Part shown: positions 20,666-41,046 of the stretch, piece by piece | Numbering within the stretch: the stretch's first letter is position 1 | Layout of the letters: every line of letters starts with the position of its first letter | DNA from: a virus | Taxonomy: Duplodnaviria > Caudoviricetes | Reading direction: 5' to 3' (one strand) | Length of the DNA: 50,977 bases | IMG/VR virus record: IMGVR_UViG_3300045733_000207 | Coordinates: 1-50,977 of that record | The notes under the pieces: model-generated | Seen by the model: only the letters and a program-made list of their open reading frames with translations | Database searches by the model: none | Told to the model about the DNA's origin: nothing | Made by a program: the position numbers and the translations under genes

Positions 20666-20899
20666 GTGCGTAACATGGACATTAAACACAATCTCACCTT
20701 AGTGCATTGCAGGGACTGTCAGCATCACCAACTAGGCTTAGACCGGAAACTACGTTGCCGATTCAATGTTGGTAAACCATTGCCAGTCTGGGCAATCACA
20801 GAATCAATCATGGTCGTACCGCCAAGCAAGGGCTGGCCGTGCAAGGCGTTTAAGTCCAACACGGATTTGAGGGCCGGCAAAGCCGTACCCTCGAAATGA
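20666..20899 (+). CDS. Small Cys-rich hypothetical protein; its C-terminus runs into an attC-like site
   Basis: CRDC...C...C; in-frame AAC at 20858. Confidence 0.55.
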   Translation: MRNMDIKHNLTLVHCRDCQHHQLGLDRKLRCRFNVGKPLPVWAITESIMVVPPSKGWPCKAFKSNTDLRAGKAVPSK

Positions 20900-20908
20900 T
20901 GGTTGTCG
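20854..20908 (-). mobile_element. attC-like recombination site (locus 1)
   Basis: + strand: GTCCAAC acgga TTT GAGGGC cggc aaa gccg [T] ACCCTC [G] AAA tgatg GTTGTCG; extrahelical T and G on the right arm. Confidence 0.8.
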
Positions 20909-20933
20909 TAACAAATCAAAGGAGGGTTGAATA

Positions 20934-21281
20934 ATGATTACTCAACAGACAGCAGCGAAGATATGGGCAGCATACCGCGAAATTGAAGTGTCCGAAAAAC
21001 TGATTGCCGACATGAAGAAAGAACGGGATGCGCCTTTCTCTGACATCAAGCGCCACGAAGCAACGCTGAAGGACGCTTTCGGACGAAGGCAGCATCTTGA
21101 ACTTGGCATCCCTTGCGGAGACAATGGGCATCGACTCTATCAGGTTGAACCGGAACTTGCGGAGTCTGTCATTCGCGCTCACATCGCCCACAAACGGGTT
21201 GCGCTGGTTGAAGCCAATGAATGTGCGCGGATCGAACTCAGTACCGACAACAACAGAATATGCGTCACCGGCGAGGACTGA
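20934..21281 (+). CDS. Hypothetical protein, cassette cargo
   Basis: GGAGG RBS; flanked by GTTGTCG (20902) and its reverse complement CGACAAC (21245). Confidence 0.75.
   Translation: MITQQTAAKIWAAYREIEVSEKLIADMKKERDAPFSDIKRHEATLKDAFGRRQHLELGIPCGDNGHRLYQVEPELAESVIRAHIAHKRVALVEANECARIELSTDNNRICVTGED
21245..21267 (-). mobile_element. attI-like terminal site 1
   Basis: CGACAAC-aacag-AATATGCGTCA; same motif and spacing as 30557-30579. Confidence 0.6.
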
Positions 21282-21282
21282 T

Positions 21283-21573
21283 ATGTATCGCAAAACCTAC
21301 AGGCGCAAGAAGTGCGAAAGCAAGGTCAGTCGGTTAAGGGCGAACCAACGGGCGGCGAAGGAACGCAAGCGCATTGCTGAAGCCTGTCACTGGCGCGATG
21401 TCGGTGGGTTTACGACAGATGGGATACTCGGCAATCACAAGGTGCGACTACTGGCAAAAGATGATGAGGATAAATGGCTGGCAGTGTTTGTTGACGGCCA
21501 AGCCAAACAACCGAGAACCATGCGCGGGATAAAGAACTGTATAGCAGACATGATTTGGGGGAAAATGAAATGA
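21283..21573 (+). CDS. Hypothetical basic protein
   Basis: ATG 2 nt after the upstream stop; GAGGA RBS. Confidence 0.55.
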   Translation: MYRKTYRRKKCESKVSRLRANQRAAKERKRIAEACHWRDVGGFTTDGILGNHKVRLLAKDDEDKWLAVFVDGQAKQPRTMRGIKNCIADMIWGKMK

Positions 21574-21786
21574 TAGCCAACCTGAGTCTCAGTGTGATGC
21601 TGCAAATCGTGTTGGTCATCTTCATAGCATGGGGGACAGCCAAGACTATTGATGCTGCGTACCAGGCTGCTGACCGGCGTAGGCGGTACTTTGAGCGGAA
21701 CAGGCGGGAAGGGCGGGAGTCGTTGTACAGGCGGTTGAAACAGAGTAGGAGATAAACCAGTACCAACAGAAAGGCGGGGAGTAGTT

Positions 21787-22239
21787 ATGAACGTATCTGA
21801 TCTATCAACCAGTAATTACCTATCACGGAAAGAGACGGGGGACGGTGTAGGGTTGTTGCTCACAGTAAAATCGGTCGAGCATGAAAATATTGCAGGCGAC
21901 AACCAAGCGGAAAACATGAAGTATGTCATGTTTTTTAACGAACAGGAAAAGGGACTCGTTCTGAACAAAACGAACGGCACTATTATGGCTGCTATTGCCG
22001 GAAGTCCTGAGTCAGAAAACTGGATCGGCAAGAAATGCGTTGCGTATTTTGATGCAAGCATTATGTACAAAGGCGAAGTCAAAGGTGGTATCAGATTACG
22101 TAAACCGGTACTTAAAGCAGCGCAACCCGCAAAACAACCAGTGACCAAGCCTGCTCCGGTTGCGGCAGTTGATCTGGCCGAGGGTAATCCGCCGGATGAT
22201 CTTGATATGGGCGCAGATGTTTCTGATATGCCTTTCTAA
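21787..22239 (+). CDS. Putative single-stranded DNA-binding protein
   Basis: LVLNKTN...WIGK...GGIRL core, low-complexity linker and acidic tail ending DMPF. Confidence 0.6.
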   Translation: MNVSDLSTSNYLSRKETGDGVGLLLTVKSVEHENIAGDNQAENMKYVMFFNEQEKGLVLNKTNGTIMAAIAGSPESENWIGKKCVAYFDASIMYKGEVKGGIRLRKPVLKAAQPAKQPVTKPAPVAAVDLAEGNPPDDLDMGADVSDMPF

Positions 22240-22256
22240 AATTATTAAGGACTAAC

Positions 22257-22583
22257 ATGCCCACTACAGATAAACAGGCGCAAGTGCTGGAAGCTGCAAG
22301 ACAAATCAAGCATCTACGATTTGACTGGCGACGCCACAACCCTTGCGACCTGTTTGTTCTGAGTGCTGGACAGGAACGTATATTGGCAGAGGCAGAGCAA
22401 ATTACTCAGGCGCGGCTGGCGGAGTATTTCGCAATAAAGGCAGAGTATCAGGCTATGACCGAAATAGAGTCTAGGCGGGGTGAGGATACGGCCATTGATG
22501 ATGAGATTCACAAAGCCATTTCGGACAGGATCGGCGGTGATGCTTACTTTGGGTTGCCGCCTAGGGAGCATGTAAATTCGTGA
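22257..22583 (+). CDS. Hypothetical protein
   Basis: AAGGA RBS; 108 aa. Confidence 0.6.
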   Translation: MPTTDKQAQVLEAARQIKHLRFDWRRHNPCDLFVLSAGQERILAEAEQITQARLAEYFAIKAEYQAMTEIESRRGEDTAIDDEIHKAISDRIGGDAYFGLPPREHVNS

Positions 22584-22586
22584 TCC

Positions 22587-22641
22587 GCCGGGGTGGGGAA
22601 CATTCGGCAGCATACCCCTTGCTGACCGCCCCACGCCCGGC
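22587..22641 (+). other. Long GC-rich intergenic hairpin
   Basis: GCCGGG/CCCGGC, GTGGGG/CCCCAC and CAGCA/TGCTG closing a 7-nt loop. Confidence 0.6.
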
Positions 22642-22665
22642 CTTTAAGGATGTAAAAGAAATTTG

Positions 22666-22840
22666 TTGACTGTTTTCAGGAGATGTGATTAACTATGCGG
22701 CATGAAAAGAATACTGGTATGTTCTTGGAATCAAAACCACTGCATAGACAAGCTTGCATTTTGTCCCCACATGGACAAGTCCACTTGTCTGTCGGTCTGG
22801 CCCAAAACCGGAACGGCATACCAGCATGTGGGGACTTTTT
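22666..22840 (+). ncRNA. Promoter plus multi-stem leader RNA with internal antisense boxes (C4/CI-like architecture)
   Basis: TTGACT at 22666; outer stem GTCCCCACATG/CATGTGGGGAC followed by TTTTT; inner boxes complementary to 22714-22723 and 22744-22752. Confidence 0.55.
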
Positions 22841-23433
22841 ATCCCTGCTGATTTCATCGCGTAAGCACCGACAATCGCTTCAGGCGGGTCGCTTGCTGAA
22901 GGAATGGCGCAGGGAGGAGGCTAACCCCACCTTGCTCAAAGATGATTCAGGGATTCACCACTCCGCGACAGAGAGAAGGCTAGGCATGGGCATATACCAT
23001 TGGCCGAGGGTGAACAACAAGCGACGGCGGCTCCGGCTGCGGGCTTACAGTCAACAGATAGTCCCTCTTTGCACAGGGGGATTATCTGCTCAGGCTCACC
23101 AACAACAGGCTGTCAGTCAAAGGAAAAGGGGGAGGAATATGAACGGCAAACACCAAAAGAAACACTTCAACAATCCGCGCTTCGGCAAGTTTACATACAC
23201 GCCAGCCGATCTTCCGGTAACTTTCGGTCTTATGCCACATGAACAGCCACGGCTAACAACACTGCAAATTGTTCAGGATGTTATGACCGAGGCAGAATTG
23301 AGATGCAACTTCACACCGCCCGGATGTAAGAAGTGTGAGCACTATCCACCCGCACGTTTTCCGGCCTGTCGCGGATTGAAACGAAAAGCAGCAATCAGAA
23401 TTGCACTATGGTTTATCAATCACAGGAGTTGAC

Positions 23434-23757
23434 ATGAACTACAAACCCATTGTTGTACTCGGATATTTCTTGGAGATGGGATTACCCGAACCAGTGTTTG
23501 AGCACGTCTATATTCCATGCAGAAAATTCAGGTTAGACATTGCTTTCCCTGCATACAAGGTGGGGTTAGAAGTTCAGGGCGGCTTATGGTTCAAGGCGGC
23601 ACACTCCACCGGCAAGGGTATCAAGCGCGACATGGAGAAACGCAATCTCGGAATCCTCCACGGCTGGGATGTCGTGGAGTGTGAACCTTGCGAAGTGTGC
23701 ATGTTGGAAACAGTAGAACTACTCAGGACGGTGCTCAGGTTGCACGGAAGGAAATAA
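23434..23757 (+). CDS. PD-(D/E)xK, Vsr/DUF559-like endonuclease
   Basis: E.....RKFRLDIAFP..KVGLEVQGG.......H......DMEKRN pattern; AGGAG RBS. Confidence 0.7.
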   Translation: MNYKPIVVLGYFLEMGLPEPVFEHVYIPCRKFRLDIAFPAYKVGLEVQGGLWFKAAHSTGKGIKRDMEKRNLGILHGWDVVECEPCEVCMLETVELLRTVLRLHGRK

Positions 23758-23760
23758 CAT

Positions 23761-24153
23761 ATGGAATCAGAATATCCAACAGACGAGCAACTTTCCAAAA
23801 TCGAATTATGGCCAACGACCAATATGGTTGGCTTGGCCCAATACGTTGTCGAGGTGTGGCAAAATGATTTTGGCCAAGCGACGTTGAATCCTGCCAAAAC
23901 GTATATGAGACTTATTACAGGGGGTGGGTCTGGCAATGAATATATAATCGAGGCATTGAGTTCAACTCTGTTCTGGCAAGTATTCTGGGCAGCCTCATAC
24001 CGTGGCGGAGTATATGCGTTTGACGGCATCCGAGAGTTTGCCAGCTCCACAATGCCCCTACAAGCTCGTAAAACGGGCAAGGCGGGGTTCTGCGGCACTA
24101 AAGGCATACAGGGGAAGGGGTCAAGCAGGACAAACTGCGGGACAAACCCTTAA
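23761..24153 (+). CDS. Hypothetical protein
   Basis: 130-aa ORF, tightly packed. Confidence 0.55.
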   Translation: MESEYPTDEQLSKIELWPTTNMVGLAQYVVEVWQNDFGQATLNPAKTYMRLITGGGSGNEYIIEALSSTLFWQVFWAASYRGGVYAFDGIREFASSTMPLQARKTGKAGFCGTKGIQGKGSSRTNCGTNP

Positions 24154-24189
24154 CAAAGCACTGTTAGTCAATACTTTGGAGGGGACAAA

Positions 24190-24561
24190 ATGAGCGACAA
24201 ACCAACAACTGAAACATGGGTCACCGGCTGCATAGCCAAACGCACACCGGATGCGCTGCGGATCCTCATGGACTTAGTGCAAGCTGGATTGCGGAATGGT
24301 GAATGTTCCGCGCTGGACGTACGCGACGTGCATTTCGATGAGCCTAACATTATTGGTTGCACTATGCGCCTTCTACCGAAACTAGGCTTTGTGCATACGG
24401 ATCGGCGCGTTGCCAATGTGATCCGGCGCAAACACTACAGGCGGGTTGATATGTGGGAACTGCGGGAACGTTACAAAGCTGAACTATTCATAGACAAATG
24501 CCGGGGCCGGTTGCTGGAAGTGGCGCAGGGGCAGGCAAATCAGTTAAGACTAGCAATGTGA
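24190..24561 (+). CDS. Hypothetical protein
   Basis: GGAGG RBS; 123 aa. Confidence 0.65.
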   Translation: MSDKPTTETWVTGCIAKRTPDALRILMDLVQAGLRNGECSALDVRDVHFDEPNIIGCTMRLLPKLGFVHTDRRVANVIRRKHYRRVDMWELRERYKAELFIDKCRGRLLEVAQGQANQLRLAM

Positions 24562-24566: not shown

Positions 24567-24643
24567 ACTCCGGGGACTTGCCTACTCCGTGACTAGTCCG
24601 CCGAGGATCCCGAAAGGGTAAAGCAGACCCGGAGTAGTTTTTT
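24567..24643 (+). other. Branched RNA structure/terminator-like element upstream of the helicase
   Basis: ACTCCGGG/CCCGGAGT outer stem, CCC-GAAA-GGG hairpin, T run. Confidence 0.5.
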
Positions 24644-24664
24644 GAAAGGGGAAACAATAAAGAG

Positions 24665-26098
24665 ATGAATGATTACGAGAAATTCTTGGAGCAAAAGTCG
24701 CAGCTTGGTGGGAACTATGGATTTGAACCGACGTTCATGCCCGCGCTTCTGTTTCCTTTTCAGGTCGCATTGACACAATGGGCAACAATGAAGGGACTTT
24801 GCGCTATTTTTGCCGACTGTGGTCTTGGCAAAACTTTCATTCAGTTGACCTGGGCTGAGAATGTCGCACGCAAAACAGACAAGCCCGTTCTCATTCTTGC
24901 GCCTCTTGCCGTATCAGGTCAAACAGTAAAAGAAGCCGACAAGATTGGAGTAGACTGTCAACAGAGTCGCGACGGTAAAGTCATGCCGCGAATCACGGTG
25001 ACTAACTATGAGAAATTACACCTGTTCAATCCTTCTGATTTTGCGGGATGTGTCTGCGATGAATCATCCATCTTGAAACATTTCACTGGCGCAACGCAAA
25101 TGCAAGTCACGCGGTTTATGAATAAGATGCCGTATCGATTGCTTTGCACGGCAACCGCCGCGCCTAACGATTACATTGAACTTGGAACGTCAAGTGAGGC
25201 GTTAGGGGAGTTAAATTATTCAGATATGCTGTCCAGATTTTTCAAACAGCTTGATGATAAGGGACAAAAGAGTGAGACTAAGAGACAAGACTTTGACGAG
25301 AAAGCATCAAAGCATTTTGCAAAGCTATCATTCAGAGTGTCGCAGACTATCGGGCAATACCGATTAAAACATCACGCTATAACGGCTTTCTGGAAATGGG
25401 TTTGTTCATGGTCAAGAGCATGTCGGAAGCCGAGTGATCTGGGATTCGATGATACGGGATTCATTCTACCGGAACTCCAAGAACAGCATCACATCATAAC
25501 ACCGACCACTCCGCCTGAGGGAATGCTTTTCTGTATGCCTGCTTTCGGACTGAGAGAAGAACGGGAAGAGCGACGGCGCACTATGAAAGAGCGTTGTGAG
25601 TTTGTGGCGTCATTGGTGAATCATTCTGAGCCTGCTGTTATTTGGTGCCACATGAATAAAGAGGGTGATCTGCTGGAAAAGATAATTCCTGATGCGCAGC
25701 AAATCAAAGGGTCAACGCCGGATGATATGCGTGAAGAACTTTACGCGGCGTTCAGTTCCGGCAATCAACGAGTGCTGATTATCAAGCCAAAGATAGGAGC
25801 TTGGGGACTCAACTGGCAGCATTGCGCACACGTTGTCACATTTGCCAGTCATTCTTATGAACAGTTCTATCAGTCAATAAGAAGATGCTGGAGGTTCGGG
25901 CAGAAAAGGCCTGTAAGATTAGACGTTGTCGCAACCGAGGGAGAACGCGGAGTGTTTGAAAACATGATGAGGAAGTCTCAGAGAGCGGATGCAATGTTTA
26001 CAGAATTAGTCAAACACATGAACGATGCACAAAAAATAGAGAGAGTCAACAGCTACACAAACAAAATGGAGGTTCCGTCATGGTCAAAGAACAGCTAA
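24665..26098 (+). CDS. SNF2-like superfamily 2 helicase
   Basis: ADCGLGKT (Walker A), CDESS (Walker B), TATAAPN, GLNWQ, QSIRRCWRFGQ. Confidence 0.9.
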   Translation: MNDYEKFLEQKSQLGGNYGFEPTFMPALLFPFQVALTQWATMKGLCAIFADCGLGKTFIQLTWAENVARKTDKPVLILAPLAVSGQTVKEADKIGVDCQQSRDGKVMPRITVTNYEKLHLFNPSDFAGCVCDESSILKHFTGATQMQVTRFMNKMPYRLLCTATAAPNDYIELGTSSEALGELNYSDMLSRFFKQLDDKGQKSETKRQDFDEKASKHFAKLSFRVSQTIGQYRLKHHAITAFWKWVCSWSRACRKPSDLGFDDTGFILPELQEQHHIITPTTPPEGMLFCMPAFGLREEREERRRTMKERCEFVASLVNHSEPAVIWCHMNKEGDLLEKIIPDAQQIKGSTPDDMREELYAAFSSGNQRVLIIKPKIGAWGLNWQHCAHVVTFASHSYEQFYQSIRRCWRFGQKRPVRLDVVATEGERGVFENMMRKSQRADAMFTELVKHMNDAQKIERVNSYTNKMEVPSWSKNS

Positions 26099-27036
26099 TC
26101 ACACCGCGCTATGCGATATACAATGGTGACTGCGTTCAAGCAATGCAAGAGTTGAAAGATGAATCAATCCACCTTTCTCTATACTCACCTCCTTTCGCCG
26201 GGTTATACGTTTATTCGAGCGATGAGCAAGACCTGTCAAACTCCGTCAACTTCACGGAGTTTATGGATCACTACCGTTTCGTGATAAACGAAATCCACCG
26301 GCTCACAATGCCTGGCCGAATATCAGCCGTGCATTGCATGGATATTACCACTGGGAATAGTGGGTTCGATCATCTGAAAGATTTTCCGGGAGATATAATT
26401 AGGCTCCACGAGGAATGCGGCTTTCATTATATCGCACGGTATCACATTTGGAAAGAGCCATTGACGATCCGCAATAGAACAATGATGAAGTCGCTATCGC
26501 ATAAATGTCTTACGTTAGATTCAACAAAATGCAGCGTTGCTAACGCGGATTATCTGTTGATCTTTCGGCGGTCCGGTAACAATCCTGTTCCTGTTGCGCA
26601 TACTCACGGACTGTTGAACTATGCCGGGGAAAAGCCGATACCAAACGAAGTCCTGCCTTATCGTAACTGGCAAGGTAGTCAGCTTGAGAACAGATATTCT
26701 CAATGGGTTTGGAGGCAATACGCAAGTTCATTCTGGGATGATGTTAGGATTGACCGCGTGTTGAAATACAGACCCGCAAAAGATCAAGACGATGAAAAGC
26801 ATTGTCACCCCTTGCAACTTGACGTAATAGAGCGTGCCTGCGTGCTATGGTCAAACCCTAACGACGTTGTGTTGACTCCGTTCATGGGAGTGGGATCAGA
26901 GGTCTATGGGGCAGTACTGAACGGACGCAAGGCCATAGGGGTTGAGTTGAAGTCGTCATACTTCAAACAGGCGGTACGAAATCTAGCCGAGATCAAGCTG
27001 GATGATGAGCATGGCGAGTTCCAATTCAAAACTTGA
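26080..27036 (+). CDS. DNA amino-methyltransferase (N4-C/N6-A, beta class)
   Basis: SPPF catalytic motif near the N-terminus; HP.QL and VLTPFMGVGS SAM-binding motif near the C-terminus. Confidence 0.9.
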   Translation: MVKEQLITPRYAIYNGDCVQAMQELKDESIHLSLYSPPFAGLYVYSSDEQDLSNSVNFTEFMDHYRFVINEIHRLTMPGRISAVHCMDITTGNSGFDHLKDFPGDIIRLHEECGFHYIARYHIWKEPLTIRNRTMMKSLSHKCLTLDSTKCSVANADYLLIFRRSGNNPVPVAHTHGLLNYAGEKPIPNEVLPYRNWQGSQLENRYSQWVWRQYASSFWDDVRIDRVLKYRPAKDQDDEKHCHPLQLDVIERACVLWSNPNDVVLTPFMGVGSEVYGAVLNGRKAIGVELKSSYFKQAVRNLAEIKLDDEHGEFQFKT

Positions 27037-27267: not shown

Positions 27268-27497
27268 ACAACGATCCCGCCACAATCCCTGACCGTGCCG
27301 CCGCGATATTGTTCCCCATGCTTGGCATGAATGTCTATTCACGGGTTGATACACTGGCTGAACGGCTGGCGAAGTTGCTTGGACCCGGTCACACTATCCA
27401 TACCGTGATAGAAGGATTCAAGGAATCACTGGATGACCCTGAAAACACATGCAGAGAACTGGCTATACTGATTGCTAAAGCGGAGGGTGAGATATGA
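27264..27497 (+). CDS. Hypothetical protein
   Basis: ATGA coupling at both ends. Confidence 0.55.
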   Translation: MNNDPATIPDRAAAILFPMLGMNVYSRVDTLAERLAKLLGPGHTIHTVIEGFKESLDDPENTCRELAILIAKAEGEI

Positions 27498-27670
27498 ACA
27501 GAATCAAGCGACAGAAGAATACTGCAAAGACCTGCAAGAATTGCTCGGCATGGTTCGGTGATGATGAGACTTGCTGGTATATCTCCTGCAAGCGCAACCC
27601 TTGCCAATATGACCATTGGAGATCAAAGAAGTTTGCAACGAGTTCCAACAATGCCGTGAGGGTCAAATGA
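27494..27670 (+). CDS. 58-aa Cys-rich protein (absent from the ORF track)
   Basis: Own translation MNRIKRQKNTAKTCKNC...SSNNAVRVK; GGAGG RBS; stop overlaps ATG 27667. Confidence 0.55.
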   Translation: MNRIKRQKNTAKTCKNCSAWFGDDETCWYISCKRNPCQYDHWRSKKFATSSNNAVRVK

Positions 27671-27709
27671 CCGCTGCGGGCATTTGTACTCTCGACGGGC
27701 TGGTTCGCT
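27643..27709 (-). mobile_element. attC-like site Z
   Basis: TTCCAAC aatgc CGT GAGGGT CAAATG ... CATTTG [T] ACTCTC [G] ACG ggctg GTTCGCT. Confidence 0.85.
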
Positions 27710-28392
27710 GTCTTGATCTCTTCTGCTGCGCCGGGGGGGCAGGAGAGGGCTACCGCCGCGCCGGGTTCGACGTGACCGGCGTGGACATCCGGCCTCAACC
27801 GCAGAACCCGCACCGATTCATTCAGGGGGACGCGCTCGCGTTCCTGCCCGCCCACGGCCACGAGTTCGACTTCATCCACGCAAGCCCGCCATGCCAAGGC
27901 TACAGCACGCTTGCCGCGATGCACCCAGGCAAGACGTGGCCGAAACTGATTGACCAAGTGCGGTCGTTGCTCAAGGCGACCGGACGGCCTTACGTGATTG
28001 AGAACGTCGAAACCGCACCGCTCAACCGTGAATCTGACCTGTTCGGAAACCACGGCGTCTTGCTGTGTGGGAGCATGTTTGGCCTCGGTGTGGAGAGCGG
28101 ATTTCTGCGGAGGCATCGAATCTTCGAGACGAGCTTTCCAGTCCCGCAGCCGGAATGCCGCCACGTCGGCAAGGCGGTGGGAGTTTACGGCCACGGCGGG
28201 CACACTGGAAAGCACCGGATGCTGTACCGCGAAGAGGCGGCGAAGGCGATGGGGATTGACTGGATGAACAGGGACAACATGTGCCAGGCGATACCGCCGG
28301 CGTACACCGAATGGCTTGGGCGCTACGCGATGGCCCATACAGCGAACGCCCGAAATCAGGGGCTTGCGCACCAAGGAGAACGCCATGACTGA
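27667..28392 (+). CDS. Short DNA cytosine-C5 methyltransferase (cassette cargo)
   Basis: LDLFCCAGG (motif I), SPPCQ (IV), IENV (VI); GC-richer than its flanks. Confidence 0.85.
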   Translation: MTAAGICTLDGLVRCLDLFCCAGGAGEGYRRAGFDVTGVDIRPQPQNPHRFIQGDALAFLPAHGHEFDFIHASPPCQGYSTLAAMHPGKTWPKLIDQVRSLLKATGRPYVIENVETAPLNRESDLFGNHGVLLCGSMFGLGVESGFLRRHRIFETSFPVPQPECRHVGKAVGVYGHGGHTGKHRMLYREEAAKAMGIDWMNRDNMCQAIPPAYTEWLGRYAMAHTANARNQGLAHQGERHD

Positions 28393-28438
28393 GACAAACG
28401 CGAGCGGGGCGCAAGTACCCTGCATTTCATTGTTGGCC
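28341..28438 (-). mobile_element. attC-like site A; loop holds AGGAG RBS and ATG 28385
   Basis: AGCGAAC gcccga AAT CAGGGG CTTGCGC ... GCGCAAG [T] ACCCTG [C] ATT tcatt GTTGGCC. Confidence 0.85.
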
Positions 28439-28657
28439 GATCACCTCGACTTGATGGTTGATGAGTTCAAGAGGATCAAGGCGCTGACAAGGGATACCGA
28501 AATTCAAGGGCTTTGTGACCGGGCAATCTCAAACACGAAACAGCGCGTTCCGGTGATTGTTCAACGGAACGAATGGGAGAGGAAGTTCTGGGAACTGGAC
28601 AAGCAATGGTCGGAGCGATACGCCGAATTGAAGAAGGCCACCGGCAGGAGGAAGTGA
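28385..28657 (+). CDS. Hypothetical protein (cassette cargo)
   Basis: RBS and ATG inside the site A loop. Confidence 0.7.
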   Translation: MTETNASGAQVPCISLLADHLDLMVDEFKRIKALTRDTEIQGLCDRAISNTKQRVPVIVQRNEWERKFWELDKQWSERYAELKKATGRRK

Positions 28658-28763
28658 AATGACGCCCAAAGAAATTGAACAAGCAGAGCATGACGAGTTG
28701 GATAAGCACGGTGTGTTGAAGTTTGCCGAGCTTTCTCCTGTACGGTCGGTGCCATTGTTGGCT
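28636..28763 (-). mobile_element. Degenerate attC-like site B
   Basis: Intact right arm CCTG[T]ACGGTC[G]GTG ccatt GTTGGCT; left arm shortened, starting GGCCACC instead of GGCCAAC. Confidence 0.6.
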
Positions 28764-28967
28764 GAGGCAGTTCTTATTGACATCTTCAAGACAACTGTTC
28801 AGGCAATGCGAGATAGGCATATTCATCTGGCAGATCATTGTCTTGATTGCAGGCGTGAGTTTCGATGGGAATTCATATGCCCTGAATGCGAGGGCATTGA
28901 AATTGACAAAAGAAATCAGCAAGCCAACGCTCCTCTTGAGCGTTTGCGAGAAAAGGAGAATGGATGA
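28659..28967 (+). CDS. Hypothetical protein with CxxC...CxxC (cassette cargo)
   Basis: GGAGG RBS; CLDC...CPEC. Confidence 0.7.
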   Translation: MTPKEIEQAEHDELDKHGVLKFAELSPVRSVPLLAEAVLIDIFKTTVQAMRDRHIHLADHCLDCRREFRWEFICPECEGIEIDKRNQQANAPLERLREKENG

Positions 28968-29012
28968 AAAAGAAGCGGCTGTCGAGCAATACGCTCCGAG
29001 AGGTTGTTCGGC
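28922..29012 (-). mobile_element. attC-like site C; loop holds AGGAG and the ATGA overlap
   Basis: AGCCAAC gctcct CTT GAGCGT TTGC ... GCAA [T] ACGCTC [C] GAG aggtt GTTCGGC. Confidence 0.85.
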
Positions 29013-29197
29013 TATGCTATCTCTGCAAAGCACCTGCAACGCGACTTCTGGTGCGGTGGGGTTATGATCCAGACATTACTACACGGAAACCAATTTGCTC
29101 GAAATGTCCTTCAGGTGGAGTTGACAGTACGTGTGGTTACTCAACTGAGCCATTACCGAACGCGGAGCATGAGCCTCCGCGAGAAAGGAAAGTATGA
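28964..29197 (+). CDS. Small zinc-finger-like protein (cassette cargo)
   Basis: CYLC...CSKC; ATGA coupling at both ends. Confidence 0.65.
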   Translation: MKKKRLSSNTLREVVRLCYLCKAPATRLLVRWGYDPDITTRKPICSKCPSGGVDSTCGYSTEPLPNAEHEPPRERKV

Positions 29198-29253
29198 AAC
29201 GATTACGAATTGCCGCCGCGCTTCTCGCGGCAGGCTCCGGGCTTTTGTTGGCC
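29155..29253 (-). mobile_element. attC-like site D
   Basis: ACCGAAC gcggag CAT GAGCCT CCGCGAGAA ... TTCTCGCGG [C] AGGCTC [C] GGG ctttt GTTGGCC. Confidence 0.8.
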
Positions 29254-29484
29254 GGAAGTATCTACGCAGATACCAACGTCTGGTCTAACGACAGCACCAA
29301 CATATGCTCGATCAATACATGGAGGGTATCTACTGATCTTACCATTGGCCCCGTCACTATCTGTACGACTAATGGGGTAGTCAAGATCAAGGAGGGCGTA
29401 GCACTTGATGAAGCGAGTAGAGCTTTTTGGAAGGCAGTGTCAGATGCGTATCCCGCGATGTTTGAAACGGTGAAAAAGAAGTGA
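29194..29484 (+). CDS. Secreted hypothetical protein (cassette cargo)
   Basis: Signal peptide MKRLRIAAALLAAGSGLLLAGSIYA, mostly encoded by the attC loop and arm. Confidence 0.7.
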   Translation: MKRLRIAAALLAAGSGLLLAGSIYADTNVWSNDSTNICSINTWRVSTDLTIGPVTICTTNGVVKIKEGVALDEASRAFWKAVSDAYPAMFETVKKK

Positions 29485-29485
29485 A

Positions 29486-29544
29486 GGCCAACGCTGACAT
29501 GAGGCGCGGCGGGTGAGCCGTCGCCCTCCATGTGTTGGTTGGGC
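29486..29544 (-). mobile_element. attC-like site E (59 bp)
   Basis: GGCCAAC gctga CAT GAGG..GGCGG gtgag CCGTC..CCTC [C] ATG tgttg GTTGGGC. Confidence 0.8.
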
Positions 29545-29550
29545 AATGTT

Positions 29551-29715
29551 ATGGACGTAGATAAGAAATGGTTCAAGGATCAATTGTTCGTGATTGTGTA
29601 CCACACGGCGCACGAAAGCGAGTTGACACTGAGGGAGATGGTTCAGGCCCTTCACGAAGTGGCTGAACACGTCATGTTTCTGGAGGAAAAGAAGAATGAC
29701 AACGATGGAAGGTAA
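29551..29715 (+). CDS. Small hypothetical protein (cassette cargo)
   Basis: ATG 7 nt after site E. Confidence 0.5.
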   Translation: MDVDKKWFKDQLFVIVYHTAHESELTLREMVQALHEVAEHVMFLEEKKNDNDGR

Positions 29716-29881
29716 ATGTGCGGCACGTCTGCATTGGTTGCATGACTGTTCAATCGGAACATTGGATGTAGACGGCTATGAGTTTGTAACGGGGCAGGGC
29801 TTCACAATCGAAGCTGCTGCGCTCGCCGCCGAAGCTGACATAAAAGAGGCGTGTCAATCATGGGACTATGTAGTCGTCTAA
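29696..29881 (+). CDS. Small hypothetical protein (cassette cargo)
   Basis: GGAGG RBS; TAA stop lies inside the GTCTAAC box. Confidence 0.6.
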   Translation: MTTMEGKCAARLHWLHDCSIGTLDVDGYEFVTGQGFTIEAAALAAEADIKEACQSWDYVVV

Positions 29882-29934
29882 CGCCGCAACTCAGCCGCGA
29901 GCTTAGGCGAGTAGGCTGGTGTTGCTGGTTGGAA
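29876..29934 (-). mobile_element. attC-like site F (59 bp)
   Basis: GTCTAAC gccgca ACT CAGCCG ... [T] AGGCTG [G] TGT tgctg GTTGGAA. Confidence 0.8.
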
Positions 29935-29940
29935 CTGAAT

Positions 29941-30099
29941 ATGAAAACAACTTTAGATATGCTTAAAATGAGATTGTTCCTTTTGGAGAAATTGCGGGAT
30001 CAGATGGATGAAGATATTTTGCATGTATGGTTCGCATGGCAATGGGCGAAATATAGACATAGTTCCAACACTCAAGCTGAGGCTGAGAGAAGAGCGTAG
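29941..30099 (+). CDS. Small hypothetical protein (cassette cargo, AT-rich)
   Basis: Bounded by GTTGGAACT and AGTTCCAAC. Confidence 0.55.
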   Translation: MKTTLDMLKMRLFLLEKLRDQMDEDILHVWFAWQWAKYRHSSNTQAEAERRA

Positions 30100-30133
30100 C
30101 GATGAACGATAGATCTCCAGCGCCTTGTTCGGC
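30063..30133 (-). mobile_element. attC-like site G (weaker inner stem)
   Basis: TTCCAAC actcaa GCT GAG ... CTC [C] AGC gcctt GTTCGGC. Confidence 0.65.
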
Positions 30134-30596
30134 GGCTCCGGTCAAATGGAAAGGACGCGCTGTCTTTAGCTCGGCCCACGTCGAATGGGGAACTGACCCG
30201 GCACTAAAAGCGGCGCTCGACAAAGAGTTTAGGTTCACGCTCGATCCATGTACACCTGGACAAATATGGGATGGCAGGGCGATGTCGTGGGTCGGACATC
30301 GCGTCTTCTGTAATCCTCCATACGGTAAAGGCATGGACAAGTGGTTCGTCAAAGGGCCGGAAGCAGAACTCGCCGTGTTCCTTGTGCCTGCAAGAACCGA
30401 TGTGGGGTGGTTTCACGACTACGCGCTAAAAGCTGCCGAGATCAGATTCTTTCGTGGGCGTCTTAAATTTGTGGAGGGTCACGCTATCAAACCAGACAAA
30501 TTCTTTGGGACTGCGCCGTTCCCCTCGATGCTCGTAATTTTCAGGCGCGAGGATTCGCCGAACAGTGCAATATGCGTCAAGACGGTTTGCCATTAG
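30102..30596 (+). CDS. Phage N6-adenine DNA methyltransferase (Dam-like; cassette cargo)
   Basis: EW.T.P, FTLDPC, FCNPPY, LVPARTD, RGRLKF and APFPS motifs. Confidence 0.88.
   Translation: MNDRSPAPCSAAPVKWKGRAVFSSAHVEWGTDPALKAALDKEFRFTLDPCTPGQIWDGRAMSWVGHRVFCNPPYGKGMDKWFVKGPEAELAVFLVPARTDVGWFHDYALKAAEIRFFRGRLKFVEGHAIKPDKFFGTAPFPSMLVIFRREDSPNSAICVKTVCH
30557..30579 (-). mobile_element. attI-like terminal site 2
   Basis: GCCGAAC-agtgc-AATATGCGTCA with no hairpin partner; matches 21245-21267. Confidence 0.6.
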
Positions 30597-30635: not shown

Positions 30636-30775
30636 TTGACAGTGCGCGGGGATTTGGTAGGATGTGCGACATGCTAGAGTTAAATCAGAATCAGTTTGAA
30701 TCCCGTTCAAGTGGCGCAAGCCATTTCTTCCCGCAAGGGGAAACTCTAGCAGGCTTGGGCGGGATTCTTTTTTTT
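30636..30775 (+). ncRNA. Promoter plus multi-stem leader RNA/terminator with antisense box, upstream of the replication genes
   Basis: TTGACA...TGGTAGGAT; stem 30698-30711/30754-30767 followed by T8; two GCAA tetraloop hairpins; 30742-30751 is complementary to 30672-30681. Confidence 0.65.
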
Positions 30776-30795: not shown

Positions 30796-31449
30796 ATGTA
30801 TGGTAAATTATTTGTTTCGATGTACGAGGGGTCAATGGTTGGAGCTGGTGCCAATGTTTTTGCGTTATGGGGTTATTGCATAGCCAAAGCCGATCCAGAG
30901 GATCACACTGTTATTTTGAATCCCGAACTTTTAGCAAAGATCATTGGTACTACTGCCGAGGAAATATCAAAGTCATTGACATTTTTGACATCGCCTGATC
31001 CTAACTCAAAAAATGGAGATCACGGCGGTTGCAGGTTGTTACATCAATCAGGATTCCAGTATTTCCTTGTGAGTCACGAACACTATCGGAACATCAAAAA
31101 CAGCGAAGACGTAAGGGCTTACAACAGAGAAATGAAACGTAGAGAACGTGAAAGGAAGGCGTTGAAGGTAAATGTCAATGACAGTCATGGACAAGTCAAT
31201 GACTCTGCCTCTGCTTCTGTATCTGATATTGGGGATTGTCAAGGGGGACATACGCTCGCCGAGTGTCTAGCTGCTTCTGAGGGAATTGGAATGAAGCCTG
31301 ACGATGTTAAGAAGTTCTTCGACTACTACGACGGGGTTAAAGGCTGGGGTACAATCAAAGGCAGTCTCAAGTCAGCGTTGTCATACTGGAAATCCAACAG
31401 CCATAATTTCGACAAGCCTAAATCACGAACCCGCCCAGTGAACATATGA
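30796..31449 (+). CDS. Putative replication initiator
   Basis: N-terminal HTH-like region, charged linker, C-terminal FFDYY..KGW...W domain; coupled to the primase-helicase. Confidence 0.6.
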   Translation: MYGKLFVSMYEGSMVGAGANVFALWGYCIAKADPEDHTVILNPELLAKIIGTTAEEISKSLTFLTSPDPNSKNGDHGGCRLLHQSGFQYFLVSHEHYRNIKNSEDVRAYNREMKRRERERKALKVNVNDSHGQVNDSASASVSDIGDCQGGHTLAECLAASEGIGMKPDDVKKFFDYYDGVKGWGTIKGSLKSALSYWKSNSHNFDKPKSRTRPVNI

Positions 31450-33059
31450 ACATGCAAGATTTTCTTTCCCGGTTGCAAAAGGTTAGCAAGACCTCAAAGG
31501 GCTGGCAAGCGTGTTGTCCGTCCCATGCTGATACAACGCCGTCCCTTTCTGTTGACGAAGGAGAAAAAGGAATTGTTCTTACGTGTCGCGCTGGTTGTGA
31601 TACTGAGAAGGTCGTTGCCGCAATGGGTTTGAAAATGTCAGACCTATTTCGGGACTCATCAAAGGAAGTCATAATCACGCCTATCAAGCGGCAGGTCGTT
31701 GAAAGTTACGTGTACACCGACGCGCTTGGCAAGCCACTTTTCAGGACATGCCGAATTGAGCCAGGCAAGGACGGTCGCAAGAAAGACTTTGCGCAACAGG
31801 GAATTGGGGCAGACGGAAAATATCAGAACAACATGGAAGGCATGATCCGCGTCTTATACAATCTTCCGGCAGTATTGAAGTCTGAACAGGTCGTAATCTG
31901 TGAGGGGGAGCGCAAAGCAAATTGGATCAACGAAACAGGATACGTAGCAACGTGCAATGTTGGAGGCGCGGGGAAGTGGCTTGACGCTTGGACTGATTGC
32001 CTTGCCGGGAAATCTATTGTTATTTGTGCCGACAATGACGAACCCGGTCAGAACCATGCACGCCTTTTACACAAGGCTCTATCAGGACACGTCAAAGAAA
32101 TTCTTCATATCCGAGTACCGAAACCACACAATGACATTGTTGACTATTTCCGCAGTGTAGGCATGGACAAGGACACACGTACAAAGGCGTTCATTGATTT
32201 GCTCATGGCCGGAATGCCTGTCCCGCAAAATCTTGATGTGCCTATCCGCTCAATGGCGCAACTAGAAGAAGAATACATCGCATTCATTGCTAAATCTTCC
32301 AATACAGTTTTACTTCTTGGCAACTGGTTGCCAGCGTATCGAACCTTGCGGGGAATTGTACCCGGAGAGATGGTTACGATCATTTCAGATACCGGCGTTG
32401 GCAAAACAATGGTGCTGCATAATATAGCGTTATCAGCATCGCCGCTCTATGTCCTGTTGTTTGAATTGGAGTTGCCGAGCAGTTTAACCTTTGAACGGCT
32501 TGCCGCACTCACAACGGAATGTAGTGGATATGACATCGAGTCATTCTACAAGTCAACCAAACCCGTCCACTGGCAACGAAACGAACAGGTCAAGCGGATA
32601 TTCACCTGTTCAGAATCAAATCTATCAGTTGAGAAAATCAGGGAGATATTGCACAAGGCTGAATTGGCAATGGGCGTTAAACCCGCTGTTGTGATGATTG
32701 ATTACATCCAGTTGATGCAAGGCAGGGGTAGTCGCTACGAGAAAACATCAGACGTTGCAGAACAGTTAAAGGTGCTCGCCAAAGAGGAAAACGTAATATT
32801 GATCCTTGCATCTCAAGTATCCCGCGATGGCTCAGAGCAAATAACATTGCACTCGTCTAAAGATAGCGGGGCAATAGAAAATTCATCAGGTTGCGTTCTC
32901 GGTGCATGGCGCGACGAACATGAACGCGACAGCATTTATATCAAGCTTCTGAAGTTCACCAAAGGCCGCGCCGGAGAATTTGCAGCCGTAAAATGCACCA
33001 TTGACCGCTCATTGAGAATTAAGGAGGCAATGCCCTTTGACAAAGATGACCCGCGCTGA
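31446..33059 (+). CDS. Bifunctional primase-helicase (Zn finger + TOPRIM + DnaB-like SF4)
   Basis: CCPSHAD..PSLS...CRAGC; ICEGE...ADNDEPG; DTGVGKT; IDYIQL; ASQVSR; KDSGAIE. Confidence 0.92.
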   Translation: MNMQDFLSRLQKVSKTSKGWQACCPSHADTTPSLSVDEGEKGIVLTCRAGCDTEKVVAAMGLKMSDLFRDSSKEVIITPIKRQVVESYVYTDALGKPLFRTCRIEPGKDGRKKDFAQQGIGADGKYQNNMEGMIRVLYNLPAVLKSEQVVICEGERKANWINETGYVATCNVGGAGKWLDAWTDCLAGKSIVICADNDEPGQNHARLLHKALSGHVKEILHIRVPKPHNDIVDYFRSVGMDKDTRTKAFIDLLMAGMPVPQNLDVPIRSMAQLEEEYIAFIAKSSNTVLLLGNWLPAYRTLRGIVPGEMVTIISDTGVGKTMVLHNIALSASPLYVLLFELELPSSLTFERLAALTTECSGYDIESFYKSTKPVHWQRNEQVKRIFTCSESNLSVEKIREILHKAELAMGVKPAVVMIDYIQLMQGRGSRYEKTSDVAEQLKVLAKEENVILILASQVSRDGSEQITLHSSKDSGAIENSSGCVLGAWRDEHERDSIYIKLLKFTKGRAGEFAAVKCTIDRSLRIKEAMPFDKDDPR

Positions 33060-33395: not shown

Positions 33396-33749
33396 TTATT
33401 CATCACCGAGTCTCAACCACGCCTGATGTTTTTTCCAGCATGACCGACAATAGTACCGTTTCCCTAATTGCCTTGCCGCCCTTTGTCCGCAAGCACAGAT
33501 TCGACTATGGATAATCGCCGCCTTCCTTTTCCGGGAATACAGAATCCGTTGACACGCCCTGCAATGCAGGTATGGTTTACCGGTGAGCTTGTATATTCCT
33601 TTTCGTGGTGGAACCTTGCCGCAAGTCGAGCATAGATGTTTGAGCACCAGACTACGCCGGTAAAATCGCATGTACCCGGAATGATTACCTCTCCATTCAT
33701 TGCCGCGCTCTTGAGCCAATGGACGATTGCAAGTTGGACAGTTATCCAT
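33396..33749 (-). CDS. Multi-CxxC zinc-finger protein
   Basis: Several CxxC pairs; likely start MDNCPTC. Confidence 0.5.
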   Translation of the reverse strand: MDNCPTCNRPLAQERGNEWRGNHSGYMRFYRRSLVLKHLCSTCGKVPPRKGIYKLTGKPYLHCRACQRILYSRKRKAAIIHSRICACGQRAARQLGKRYYCRSCWKKHQAWLRLGDE

Positions 33750-34041
33750 GTGGATGTTTTTCAAAGTGCTTCTCCATTTCTGCATTTTCGAGTGTGCGTC
33801 GTTCTTCGATCCGATGTTCCGCGTTGGCTTCGTCTTGAATTTCATCATCTTGTTCATGCCTTACATTATGGCAAGCCCGGCATAAGAGGAAATTTGCTCC
33901 TGATGAATTGCTGCCGCCTTCTGATTTTGGTGGAACGTGGTGCAAAGTCAAGTCGTTAGGAGAAAATGTCTTCTCACAATCCACGCAACATCCGACTTGC
34001 GACATATACAACGCCATAAACCGCCTGTTGTTTATTCTCAC
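33742..34041 (-). CDS. HNH endonuclease
   Basis: CVDC...LTLHHVPPKSEGG...N..LLCRACHNVRH. Confidence 0.85.
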   Translation of the reverse strand: MRINNRRFMALYMSQVGCCVDCEKTFSPNDLTLHHVPPKSEGGSNSSGANFLLCRACHNVRHEQDDEIQDEANAEHRIEERRTLENAEMEKHFEKHPHG

Positions 34042-39099: not shown

Positions 39100-39327
39100 A
39101 TGGACGAGCGGGTGAAGGTGGTGGATAGGCCGAAGTTACCTGACGATTTCATAACATTCACGGTGCATCGGTGGTTAGTGGATATGATGCGTGTGCGGAA
39201 GAAGAAGACAGGTGAGCCATTGATACATCAGGTAGAGACGGCTGTGAAGTGGTATCTGGAGGGGAAGGATTCGAGGAAGATAGAGACTGACGAGCGGGGG
39301 TATTATGATGCTGATGGGGTGAAGTGA
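39100..39327 (+). CDS. Small hypothetical protein, possible ribbon-helix-helix
   Basis: TGATG overlap; FITFTVH strand followed by helices. Confidence 0.5.
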   Translation: MDERVKVVDRPKLPDDFITFTVHRWLVDMMRVRKKKTGEPLIHQVETAVKWYLEGKDSRKIETDERGYYDADGVK

Positions 39328-39791
39328 AATTAACGGAGGTTTAGTTATGAAAAACGTCAAGATAATGTCGCAATGGGATATTCGGCGAATTGTGAGGGAT
39401 GAGATAGACAAAAGTATTGCCCATATAACAGAGAAAACAATTCAGAGAATTTGTAATGATTATCTTTATCGAACGGAGAGGGGTTTTCTGGATCATCTGG
39501 CTAGACAATTTGGTTTGAAGGTTGCGGTTCCTGTGACTCAAAACATAACGGATGCTACCCCGATTCGGGATTTGCGTTTTACACGACGCACTCAGAGTTG
39601 TTTGGAACTGGCAGATATAAAAACCATTGCAGAATTGACGAATAAAACTACGTCTGATTTACTAAGATGTAGGGGACTTGGCAAAAAAACATTCTTTGAA
39701 GTTCGTAATCGGTTAAAAAGTTGTGGGCGGTCATTGAAAGATGAATGATGGTTAGGAAGATAGAGACTGACGAGCGGGGGTATTATGATGC
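39274..39791 (+). repeat. 38-bp direct repeats (39274-39311 and 39754-39791) flanking the alphaCTD gene
   Basis: AGGAAGATAGAGACTGACGAGCGGGGGTATTATGATGC occurs twice, 480 bp apart. Confidence 0.9.
39347..39748 (+). CDS. Protein with an RNA polymerase alpha subunit C-terminal domain
   Basis: PIRDLRFTRRTQSCL..ADIKTIAEL......LL...GLGKKT..EV...L...G.SL matches the RpoA CTD pattern. Confidence 0.85.
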   Translation: MKNVKIMSQWDIRRIVRDEIDKSIAHITEKTIQRICNDYLYRTERGFLDHLARQFGLKVAVPVTQNITDATPIRDLRFTRRTQSCLELADIKTIAELTNKTTSDLLRCRGLGKKTFFEVRNRLKSCGRSLKDE

Positions 39792-39803
39792 GGAGGCTGT
39801 TAA

Positions 39804-40079
39804 ATGAAGATAATGACGGCGAGTGAATTGACTGCACATGCTTTGAGCGAGGCAATATGGGAGGCTACGGGTAGAGCGCATTACGTTGAAGGGATAGAGT
39901 TGGTCTTGACGGTATCAAGCAAGATACTGGCTAGAGCGATCCTGTTGGCGTGGGCAATGAGTAAGGATTTACGGGTGGAGGTAGATGAGAGTTACGGGTA
40001 CAGGTGGACGGTGTTGGGTCGGCGGATTCTTCCAAATGGCAGGACGGAGGAGACATTGGTGTACAATGATGGGTGTTAA
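39804..40079 (+). CDS. Hypothetical protein
   Basis: GGAGG RBS. Confidence 0.6.
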   Translation: MKIMTASELTAHALSEAIWEATGRAHYVEGIELVLTVSSKILARAILLAWAMSKDLRVEVDESYGYRWTVLGRRILPNGRTEETLVYNDGC

Positions 40080-40082
40080 GTA

Positions 40083-40586
40083 ATGACCGAAGAATTGACA
40101 GCGAAGCCGGAAGAAGTACTGGAGCGGTACTTACCGACGATAACATTTGACGGTGACTTGGATCCGGCGTTCAGGAATTTGCCGGTGCAAGTGCAAGGGA
40201 TACTATTATTGAGGGCAATGGGGCTGACTCCAATGGAAATCAGCAAGATACTGAAGGTGGAGAATACTGTCATTAGTGGATATTTGGTAAGACACGATCC
40301 ATACCACAAGTTCCGGTTGACGAAGGAGCAGGTCAAGCAGGTGCAGAAAGCGTACTGGCTGCGGATCCAGAATTTAGCGTTCACGAGTTTGGATGCGGAG
40401 CGGATGAGTGAACTTGATCCAAACAAGGTGGTGCGGATGGCGGATCAGGCGCAGAAGGCGTTGGACAAGTTGGAGCAGCCAGGGGTGAGCAAGCTGACGG
40501 CTACGCAGATATTGAAGCGGCTGATGGAGTCAAAAGCGGTTACAGTGGAGGTTAAGGATGTGAACATAGGTGAAGTGACGCCATGA
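40083..40586 (+). CDS. HTH protein, candidate terminase small subunit
   Basis: GLTPMEISKILKV..TVISGYL HTH; helical remainder; upstream of TerL. Confidence 0.55.
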   Translation: MTEELTAKPEEVLERYLPTITFDGDLDPAFRNLPVQVQGILLLRAMGLTPMEISKILKVENTVISGYLVRHDPYHKFRLTKEQVKQVQKAYWLRIQNLAFTSLDAERMSELDPNKVVRMADQAQKALDKLEQPGVSKLTATQILKRLMESKAVTVEVKDVNIGEVTP

Positions 40587-40792
40587 GTCTGAACACAATG
40601 ACACCTGAGATGTACAAGGCGCGGACGGGGATCGGTGGCGGGATCAGGGAAGATGTAGAGAAGCACAAGGTGCGGCGGAATAGTAAGAGCAGGGGTAACT
40701 GGCCGGTAAGATTATGTATGCGGTTCGATTGTGTGAACAGAGACGATTTGTGCAACAACTGTATCCGATGGGACAAGTACAAGAAAGTGTGA
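40583..40792 (+). CDS. Small Cys-rich hypothetical protein
   Basis: ATGA coupling. Confidence 0.5.
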   Translation: MSLNTMTPEMYKARTGIGGGIREDVEKHKVRRNSKSRGNWPVRLCMRFDCVNRDDLCNNCIRWDKYKKV

Positions 40793-40794
40793 AC

Positions 40795-41046
40795 ATGCCT
40801 AATAAAACAGCGACGGTTGAGCAATACGCAGATTGTTCGGTGTGTGTTCACGGCCACGATCTTGATCCGCGTGCAAGTTCGATGGTCGTCTGCACGCCAC
40901 AACACAAGGCGCACGATCCGCGCCACTGTTGCTCTGGTTTCCGGCACATCACAATCATAGAAATTGACGAAAGATCAAATGCTAAATTTGGGAAACCCAA
41001 CATAGAGATCACCGGCGACAGTCCTGTGCATCGAGTGGTTGAATGA
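40795..41046 (+). CDS. Small Cys/His-rich protein, probable cassette relic
   Basis: Bounded by GTTCGGT (40835) and ACCCAAC (40995); C-richer than the G-rich flanks. Confidence 0.5.
   Translation: MPNKTATVEQYADCSVCVHGHDLDPRASSMVVCTPQHKAHDPRHCCSGFRHITIIEIDERSNAKFGKPNIEITGDSPVHRVVE
40995..41044 (-). mobile_element. Isolated short attC-like site (locus 3)
   Basis: ACCCAAC ataga GAT CACCGG ... [T] CCTGTG [C] ATC gagtg GTTGAAT. Confidence 0.6.

Follow-up and report, generated by a model that had tools for sequence, protein, structure and literature searches.

The window, that is, the whole stretch of 50,977 nucleotides analysed here, corresponds to the IMG/VR record IMGVR_UViG_3300045733_000207 and represents a complete virus genome of 50,977 bp with direct terminal repeats (completeness estimated). 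At 20.86–21.25 kb and 27.65–30.56 kb, it carries small genes bordered by short boxes built on AAC and GTT, and these borders are the subject of this work. The window features 11 AAC cores and one ACC, each with a GTT box 44–117 nt downstream, and every site shows the imperfect inverted boxes of an attC recombination site (AAC end and GTT start). In addition, the GTT box near the 5′ end of an open reading frame (ORF) is the exact reverse complement, over 6–9 nt, of the AAC box that ends the same ORF. The units enclosed by such boxes are termed cassettes here. All features lie on the plus strand unless noted, and a slash in a protein sequence follows the Asn encoded by AAC, with a stop codon closing each complete end that is given.

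The first attC-like site (20854..20908) has the left box GTCCAAC, whose AAC at 20858 lies in ORF 20675-20899, and the right box GTTGTCG at 20902. Its 3′ arm is 2 nt longer than its 5′ arm, and its right box pairs over 7 nt with the box at 21249. Cassette 1 (20860..21250) follows and contains ORF 20934-21281, which ends in ...STDN/NRICVTGED with the AAC at 21249 in frame. When cassette 1 is folded with its own 3′ box, a 7-bp outer stem closes, and the energy is −15.7 compared with −10.8 kcal/mol in situ. The next stretch, 21251..24153, may be a 2.9-kb cassette of seven ORFs, which we treat as a lead only: the right box GTTAAGGG lies at 21333, 84 nt past the AAC at 21249, and its 8-nt complement CCCTTAAC at 24147-24154 provides the TAA (24151-24153) of ORF 23761-24153. 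By our own estimate, a pair this good is expected by chance about 0.2 times in the search.

The main block begins with the attC-like site ahead of the C5 cytosine DNA methyltransferase gene (27643..27711). Its AAC at 27647 encodes the Asn of ORF 27494-27670, its right box GTTCGCTGT lies at 27703, and the methyltransferase start codon at 27667 falls inside the hairpin. Folding with its own end gives this site an outer stem of 9 bp; a 4+4 internal loop separates it from an inner stem whose 3′ arm bears two single-base bulges, a T and a G, spaced 6 bp apart. This arrangement corresponds to the bottom strand of a folded attC. The C5 methyltransferase cassette (27649..28346) consists of ORF 27667-28392 (PF00145, phrog_363), which ends in ...HTAN/ARNQGLAHQGERHD, and its boxes at 27703 and 28345 pair over 9 nt. 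The cassette of ORF 28385-28657 (28347..28641) has the right box GTTGGCC at 28432 and the degenerate end box GGCCACC. The sole mismatch between the two is an A-to-C change in the core (ACC at 28640), and the pair 28432/28640 runs over 7 nt if this ACC was once AAC. The cassette of ORF 28659-28967 (28642..28927; right box GTTGGCT at 28757, paired over 7 nt with 28926) ends in ...QQAN/APLERLREKENG, and that of ORF 28964-29197 (28928..29160; right box GTTCGG at 29006, paired over 6 nt with 29159) ends in ...PLPN/AEHEPPRERKV.

The cassette of ORF 29194-29484 (29161..29491), the product of which has a signal-peptide-like N-terminus, carries the right box GTTGGCC at 29247 and its own box GGCCAAC with the AAC at 29490, a pair of 7 nt. 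The attC-like site at 29486..29544 has CCAAC/GTTGG as its outer stem and, past a 4+4 internal loop, a bulged inner stem of 15 bp. A two-ORF cassette (29492..29881) contains ORFs 29551-29715 and 29696-29881, the second of which stops on the TAA of the box GTCTAAC. The cassette of ORF 29941-30099 (29882..30068) has an attC-like body, the right box GTTGGAACT at 29928, a 9-nt pair with the box at 30067, and the end ...HSSN/TQAEAERRA; with its own end box it folds at −17.1 compared with −10.9 kcal/mol in situ. The Dam-type N6-adenine methyltransferase cassette (30069..30562) comprises ORF 30102-30596 (PF05869, phrog_111), which ends in ...EDSPN/SAICVKTVCH. Its right box GTTCGGCG at 30127 encodes ...PCSAA and pairs over 8 nt with the box at 30561. 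At the array-end junction (30561..30579), the AAC is followed by AATATGCGTCA at offset +8, and the same arrangement occurs at 21249-21267. The genome contains just two exact copies of AATATGCGTCA, both at array ends and at the same offset, and the junction may represent an attI-like sequence that closes an array, or else a type of body common to both.

Flanking boxes are complementary over 6–9 nt in eight of the nine cassettes. Eight AAC boxes have the support of a partner, namely those at 21249, 28345, 28640 (if the ACC was once AAC), 28926, 29159, 29490, 30067, and 30561. The hairpins at 20858 and 27647 start there, yet these boxes lack a complementary partner for their own upstream ORF. Genome-wide, six ORFs have own pairs of at least 7 nt, all inside the array. 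The box at 40999 (40999..41046) has its AAC in frame in ORF 40795-41046, but its hairpin is not significant (z +0.96) and no partner of at least 7 nt lies near the ORF; it looks like a box and is kept as a candidate.

attC sites range from about 57 to 141 nt in length. In situ, hairpins ending in GGTTG are found at 20858 (z −3.4), 27647 (−2.9), 29159 (−3.0), and 29490 (−3.4). When the upstream body is folded with a cassette's own 3′ box, the result is a 7–9-bp outer stem and, beyond a 4+4 internal loop, an inner stem bearing single-base bulges; this fold is clear at 20858, 27647, 29490, and 29880. The 5′/3′ arm lengths of the window sites are 21/23, 27/29, 23/23, and 23/24, with the extra bases on the 3′ arm of the coding strand. 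Judged by these predicted folds, the AAC boxes appear to constitute the 5′ ends of attC-like hairpins.

The first-pass annotation had proposed that the core AAC is always an in-frame codon and that cassette genes take their C-terminus and stop from the next cassette. On translation, the nine AAC cores it listed (20858, 21249, 27647, 28345, 28926, 29159, 30067, 30561, and 40999) all encode in-frame Asn, and the ACC at 28640 is likewise in frame. Its two exceptions are as described: ORF 29194-29484 stops 5 nt ahead of the AAC at 29490, and ORF 29696-29881 takes its stop from a TAA (29879-29881) that runs into the AAC at 29880-29882. The start/stop geometry also holds: neighbouring ORFs overlap through ATGA at 27667, 28964, and 29194, overlap by 8 nt at 28385, and lie 1 nt apart at 28659 and 21283 and 2 nt apart at 30102; this geometry suggests translational coupling. 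The motif C[CG]AAC[AG] occurs in 75 copies on the plus strand, with frames of 30:15:14 inside genes (in frame in 30 of 59). Close to a stop (within 50 nt), its frames become 9:0:1, and those of the shorter [CG]AAC are 26:7:9 compared with 219:246:147 overall. In-frame AAC close to gene ends clusters in the early region and is nearly missing from structural genes.

Exchange of the protein tails beyond the Asn was likewise borne out, among others by Dam and C5 methyltransferases, whose homologues match up to the Asn and then continue in unrelated tails. For Dam, 18 of the 120 best matches end their conserved part in (R/K)xx(D/E)(S/P)PN before unrelated tails follow; in the pair P0005 and P0009, the last 120 core residues are 100% identical and the tail is 0% identical. 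C5 methyltransferases ending in ...QVKQAN continue in three different tails and those ending in ...QWCTAN in two, and further subgroups end in CEAN, RQN, RCN, or RAN. For ORF 28659-28967, only two homologues are comparable (P0361 and P0364), and they share sequence up to ...AN and differ afterward. The conserved part of the ORF 20934-21281 family stops at ...ARIEL, before the Asn, and speaks neither for nor against tail exchange. The tail N-x-RIC-x-TG is found both behind ORF 20934 and behind a Dam homologue (P0020, NKRICGTG), and the window's own Dam has NSAICV, a tail of related type. Two tabulations of where shared sequence ends in the three protein families were dominated by ordinary divergence and are uninformative.

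For a comparison at the DNA level, an alignment scan of metagenomes with the C5 methyltransferase yielded 80 loci. Two of these, L260 and L261, match at every position of an 833-nt stretch that runs to GCGAAC (...CAAGCGAAC). L261 then features 1,677 additional nt, ending in ...CACAGAAC, after which 100% identity to L260 resumes. The insert consists of two box-flanked cassettes with own pairs of 9 and 8 nt and sits exactly between two GAAC boxes; its first ORF is presumably PAPS reductase-like, judging by its appearance, and its second cassette encodes a second methyltransferase. One and the same tail, TDYPHQKCK followed by a stop, stands in the same frame behind the C5 methyltransferase in L260 (CQAN/) and behind the other methyltransferase in L261 (SSQN/), as expected if a cassette gene borrows its C-terminus and stop from the cassette that follows.

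Further pairs point to the same border. L266 and L270 keep 99.8% identity as far as ...CAGAAC and differ from there on, and seven near-identical C5 loci that end in GCGCCTAAC, with TAA as the stop, continue in seven different ways right after it. In L171 and L172, identity is 1.00 in the core and 1.00 in the upstream 90 nt that contain the hairpin, and it drops to 0.66—the level of unrelated sequence—in the downstream 90 nt. In all of these cases, the border falls inside the conserved AAC/GTT triplet. These comparisons thus place the exchange point at AAC and assign the hairpin body to the gene downstream of it. The classical order, with an ORF's own attC behind it and the crossover at G/TT, was not found; the body is co-inherited with the downstream ORF. 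The GTT box appears from the alignments to be a mosaic border as well, over longer times. In a second, AT-richer phage lineage (L171-L177 and L284-L296), bodies after TAAC often open with GTT, and a TAGAAGCACAAA-like repeat lies just before the next start.

The frame was tabulated in a larger sample of 406 loci with 5,857 ORFs, in which complementary flanking boxes of at least 8 nt were sought irrespective of frame. This gave 87 distinct box-flanked ORFs compared with 10 in a shifted control. The 87 divide into 34 with in-frame Asn, 22 that stop on the TAA of the box, 13 in frame 1, 9 in frame 2, and 9 with the box after the stop; for the 13 locus-strands with at least two box-flanked ORFs, the same classes count 13, 11, 3, 1, and 2. 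Where no T precedes the AAC, 19 of 29 boxes are in frame, compared with a baseline of 0.349 given by the AAC frames elsewhere in the same ORFs (p = 7e-4). The TAAC boxes divide into 21 that supply the stop, 11 in frame 0, and 2 in frame 2. The frame is thus nonrandom across the larger sample, as the first-pass annotation had anticipated against an expectation of one-third, and its wording that AAC is always in frame proved too strong. Stops on the box's TAA are almost as frequent as Asn, and about one-quarter of the box-flanked ORFs use another frame, which is near background. The rule is in-frame Asn or TAA stop, and not always Asn.

Taken together, 20.86–21.25 kb and 27.65–30.56 kb probably form an integrase-less integron-type cassette array—a cluster of attC sites lacking integron integrases (CALIN)—of mirror-image polarity in a complete phage genome. 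A cassette would read, in order, the C of AAC, an attC-like body, a GTTNNNN box, one or two ORFs, and an NNNNAA box that is the reverse complement of the GTT box. Upon circularization, it would re-form a complete folded site; a split box pair that is restored by the joining of cassette ends follows the logic of integron cassettes. By the comparisons above, the exchange occurs in or at the AAC of the coding strand, and the hairpin moves together with the downstream gene. ORFs consequently extend across this point and end in one of two ways: either AAC is read as Asn and the next cassette adds 5–15 codons and a stop, in many cases reaching into the following start codon, or the TAA of a TAAC box serves as the stop. 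The enzyme would be a host or helper integrase of the integron type acting on the folded gene-sense (coding) strand, and we infer that the common frame is a standard interface keeping shuffled cassettes terminated and translationally coupled in one early operon.

Several observations weigh against this interpretation. The complete genome contains no tyrosine recombinase, integron integrase, or serine recombinase as judged by searches that included PF00589 and TIGR02249. The box pair 29538/29880 is poor, with GTT plus two G·T positions only. When ORFs are shifted, pairs of at least 7 nt still average 2.5 and number at most 5, compared with the 6 own pairs, in a control that is inflated because the boxes resemble one another. 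Folding in situ is convincing for four to five bodies only, and several long bodies (80–117 nt) fold ambiguously, which leaves their bulge asymmetry uninformative. Among near-identical Dam cores, the N-terminal leaders vary up to CSANP, that is, up to the GTT box, and some C5 pairs differ on both sides, so that AAC is not the sole border. The 80 loci from bacterial genomes alone yield 16 box-flanked ORFs with frames of 4/6/4 (0/1/2) and no bias. Last, leaders behind TAA boxes have frame-0 stops in 75% of cases compared with 65% and 45% in the other frames, which is no clear enrichment.

An unlikely alternative dispenses with a site-specific enzyme: the junctions or hairpins would promote illegitimate or short-homology recombination or template switching, and selection would retain intact gene ends, similar to the early promoter plus terminator stem-loop elements (PeSL) of T4-type phages or to lambdoid boundary sequences. 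The lack of a recombinase in this phage fits such a process, as do the microhomology of the L261 event, which is limited to GAAC, the occurrence of mosaic borders at both boxes, and the presence of a T7-gp4-like primase-helicase in the genome. However, it gives no role to the complementarity of the flanking boxes or to the attC-like geometry, and, unlike in PeSL, promoters and terminators are not in excess: between 20400 and 31000, 9 promoter-like and 7 terminator-like sites compare with shuffle means of 10.0 and 11.4, respectively.

It is improbable that the array has the classical orientation, in which an ORF overlaps its own downstream attC, the crossover lies at G/TT, and the tail is part of the gene itself. 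This orientation predicts complementary boxes around an ORF just as well, some homology begins at the GTT box (L171 compared with L285), and the published array of phage TJE1 (NC_019930; L327, 1-1500), which has classical polarity and bulges on the 5′ arm, also features in-frame AAC and a stop on the TAA of the box. The border, however, is placed at AAC by L260/L261, L171/L172, L266/L270, the seven GCGCCTAAC loci, and the Dam and C5 tails; in addition, these cases tie the bodies to the gene that follows, and the sites of the window have a bulge asymmetry opposite to that of TJE1. Chance combined with codon bias, by which AAC near gene ends would be in frame by accident and no cassettes would exist, could appeal to the shortness and abundance of the motif and to its baseline of 30 in-frame copies in 59, but is refuted by the near-stop frames of 9:0:1, the box pairs that flank ORFs, the exact two-cassette indel between AAC boxes, and the recurrence of the frame bias in an independent sample.

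The mirror-image array has a possible extension that we hold only tentatively and rate somewhat below even: many environmental phages might share an integron system of mirror-image layout, in which the attC hairpin is the 5′ leader of the cassette, the crossover triplet is a codon, and the gene ends either on the TAA of the box or on Asn plus the stop that the next leader provides beside its own start codon. If true, this would be a natural standard assembly interface, through which phages without an integrase could swap single anti-restriction methyltransferases and other early genes by means of host integrases with operon translation unbroken, and it would explain why mosaic joints of phages fall exactly at gene borders. 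How single genes are exchanged so precisely at phage gene borders is an old question, for which there are two classical answers: linker sequences, and random illegitimate joints filtered by selection. The array offers a concrete site, namely one AAC/GTT box pair per gene together with an attC-like hairpin. For integron biology, it would represent an array type with the recombinogenic polarity inverted relative to the genes and with context-dependent protein C-termini. The cargo includes three DNA methyltransferase genes, and phage DNA methyltransferase genes are usually read as anti-restriction. The array may be a route by which lytic phages without an integrase update counter-defence genes.

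Outside the cassettes described above, the genome encodes a helicase-C protein and an N6_N4 methyltransferase (24665-27036), the T7-gp4-like primase-helicase (31446-33059), an HNH nuclease on the minus strand (33745-34041), and, in ORF 18854-19699, a papain-family cysteine peptidase domain (PF00112, E 6e-8). The window contains no tRNA, and Rfam gives 0 matches in it at gathering thresholds. At 30636-30663 on the plus strand, TTGACA, a 16-nt spacer, and TAGGAT with a TG form a sigma-70-like promoter sequence (10/12), the joint-best of the region and its sole one on the plus strand; it falls in the 199-nt gap between the array and the replication genes. Downstream of the 3′ end of ORF 24190-24561, a long GC stem with a run of six T (24585-24650) looks by eye like an intrinsic terminator and is absent from the consensus scan.

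The stretch 20–42 kb has no match among deposited phages by megablast and hence no close relative there. A sensitive blastn search matched the C5 methyltransferase gene alone, with 72–75% DNA identity to methyltransferases of Mycobacterium and Gordonia phages; the gene sits in a stretch (27711-28310) with a G+C content of 0.54, above that of most of the genome. The pair of helicase-C protein and N6_N4 methyltransferase is common to 80 viral contigs (L001-L080) at 52–75% amino-acid identity. These contigs were rejected as relatives of the phage, having nothing beyond this module in common with it; in several of them, upstream homology begins 3–7 nt past an AAC, at a GC hairpin (CGCCCGCGTGCGGGC). 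Searches with the primase-helicase and the terminase yielded no close viral contigs. Scans of viral contigs with Dam and the C5 methyltransferase gave relatives of at most 60% identity, mostly without boxes, and a scan of bacterial genome contigs gave relatives of at most 54% identity. A riverine metagenome is the only public sequencing run found to hold the genome and may be its source. Alternative joints were not seen in the array contigs of this run, the one run with the array. A 151-nt contig of depth 3 from the same run matches 27647-27707 of the window, from AAC to GTT box, with two differences.

The PeSL of T4-type phages are, in the passages of PMC2839356 and PMC4122927 that introduce them, short repeated elements at gene borders in plastic early regions, composed of an early promoter and a terminator stem-loop, for which single-gene shuffling by homologous recombination was proposed. 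Compared with PeSL as portrayed in these passages, the borders in the window share 3–4 nt only, and each ORF has its own complementary box pair. An early promoter combined with a terminator at each border was not found in the array. Among other candidates, a promoter of the extracytoplasmic function (ECF) type was rejected for its wrong spacing, and diversity-generating retroelements (DGR), HUH or IS91-type ends, and RNase III sites show a vague resemblance only and received no support.

In classical integrons, a cassette consists of an ORF followed by its own attC, and the crossover lies at G/TT. The classical attC carries RYYYAAC...GTTRRRY boxes, is split between the cassette ends and re-formed upon circularization, and undergoes exchange in the AAC/GTT triplet; its substrate is a folded single strand with an outer R stem, an unpaired spacer, an inner L stem with extrahelical bases, and a variable loop. 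The window shares with these systems the paired boxes, the split site, the exchange in the triplet, and, in the predicted folds of its short sites, the folded layout. It differs from them by having no intI, attI, or the promoter Pc adjoining the array—PF00589 and TIGR02249 are without matches—and by having the ORF downstream of the attC. Known CALINs of phages come closest to it. According to the abstract and section 3.4 of PMC9892861 (Qi et al. 2023), 17 integrase-less attC clusters occur in 10,705 phage genomes, several with methyltransferase cassettes; the phages are virulent, and IntI1 recombined attI1 with five of six phage attC sites. The window has in common with that account a phage genome of about 50 kb without an integrase and a short array of attC-type hairpins between small ORFs that include DNA methyltransferases. 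The abstract and section 3.4 mention neither reading frame nor tail exchange nor a hairpin travelling with the downstream gene, and a full-text literature search returned no other paper on the AAC frame or tail exchange. TJE1, a phage of that study, resembles the window in its box-flanked ORFs with 8-nt pairs, its in-frame AAC at 248 and 1020 (ASN/NEFKATKAP and TYN/NEFDLTT), and its stop on the TAA of a box at 1465-1467. Its arm lengths of 18/17 and 25/23, however, put the extra bases on the 5′ arm, whereas the window has them on the 3′ arm. In the window and its relatives, the crossover maps to the coding-strand AAC, and the hairpin stays with the downstream gene. With the ORF downstream of the attC, the gene is therefore translated across the crossover, and its C-terminus is set by the neighbour. 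As far as its sequence features tell, the array appears to be of a known kind, with its polarity inverted relative to the genes.

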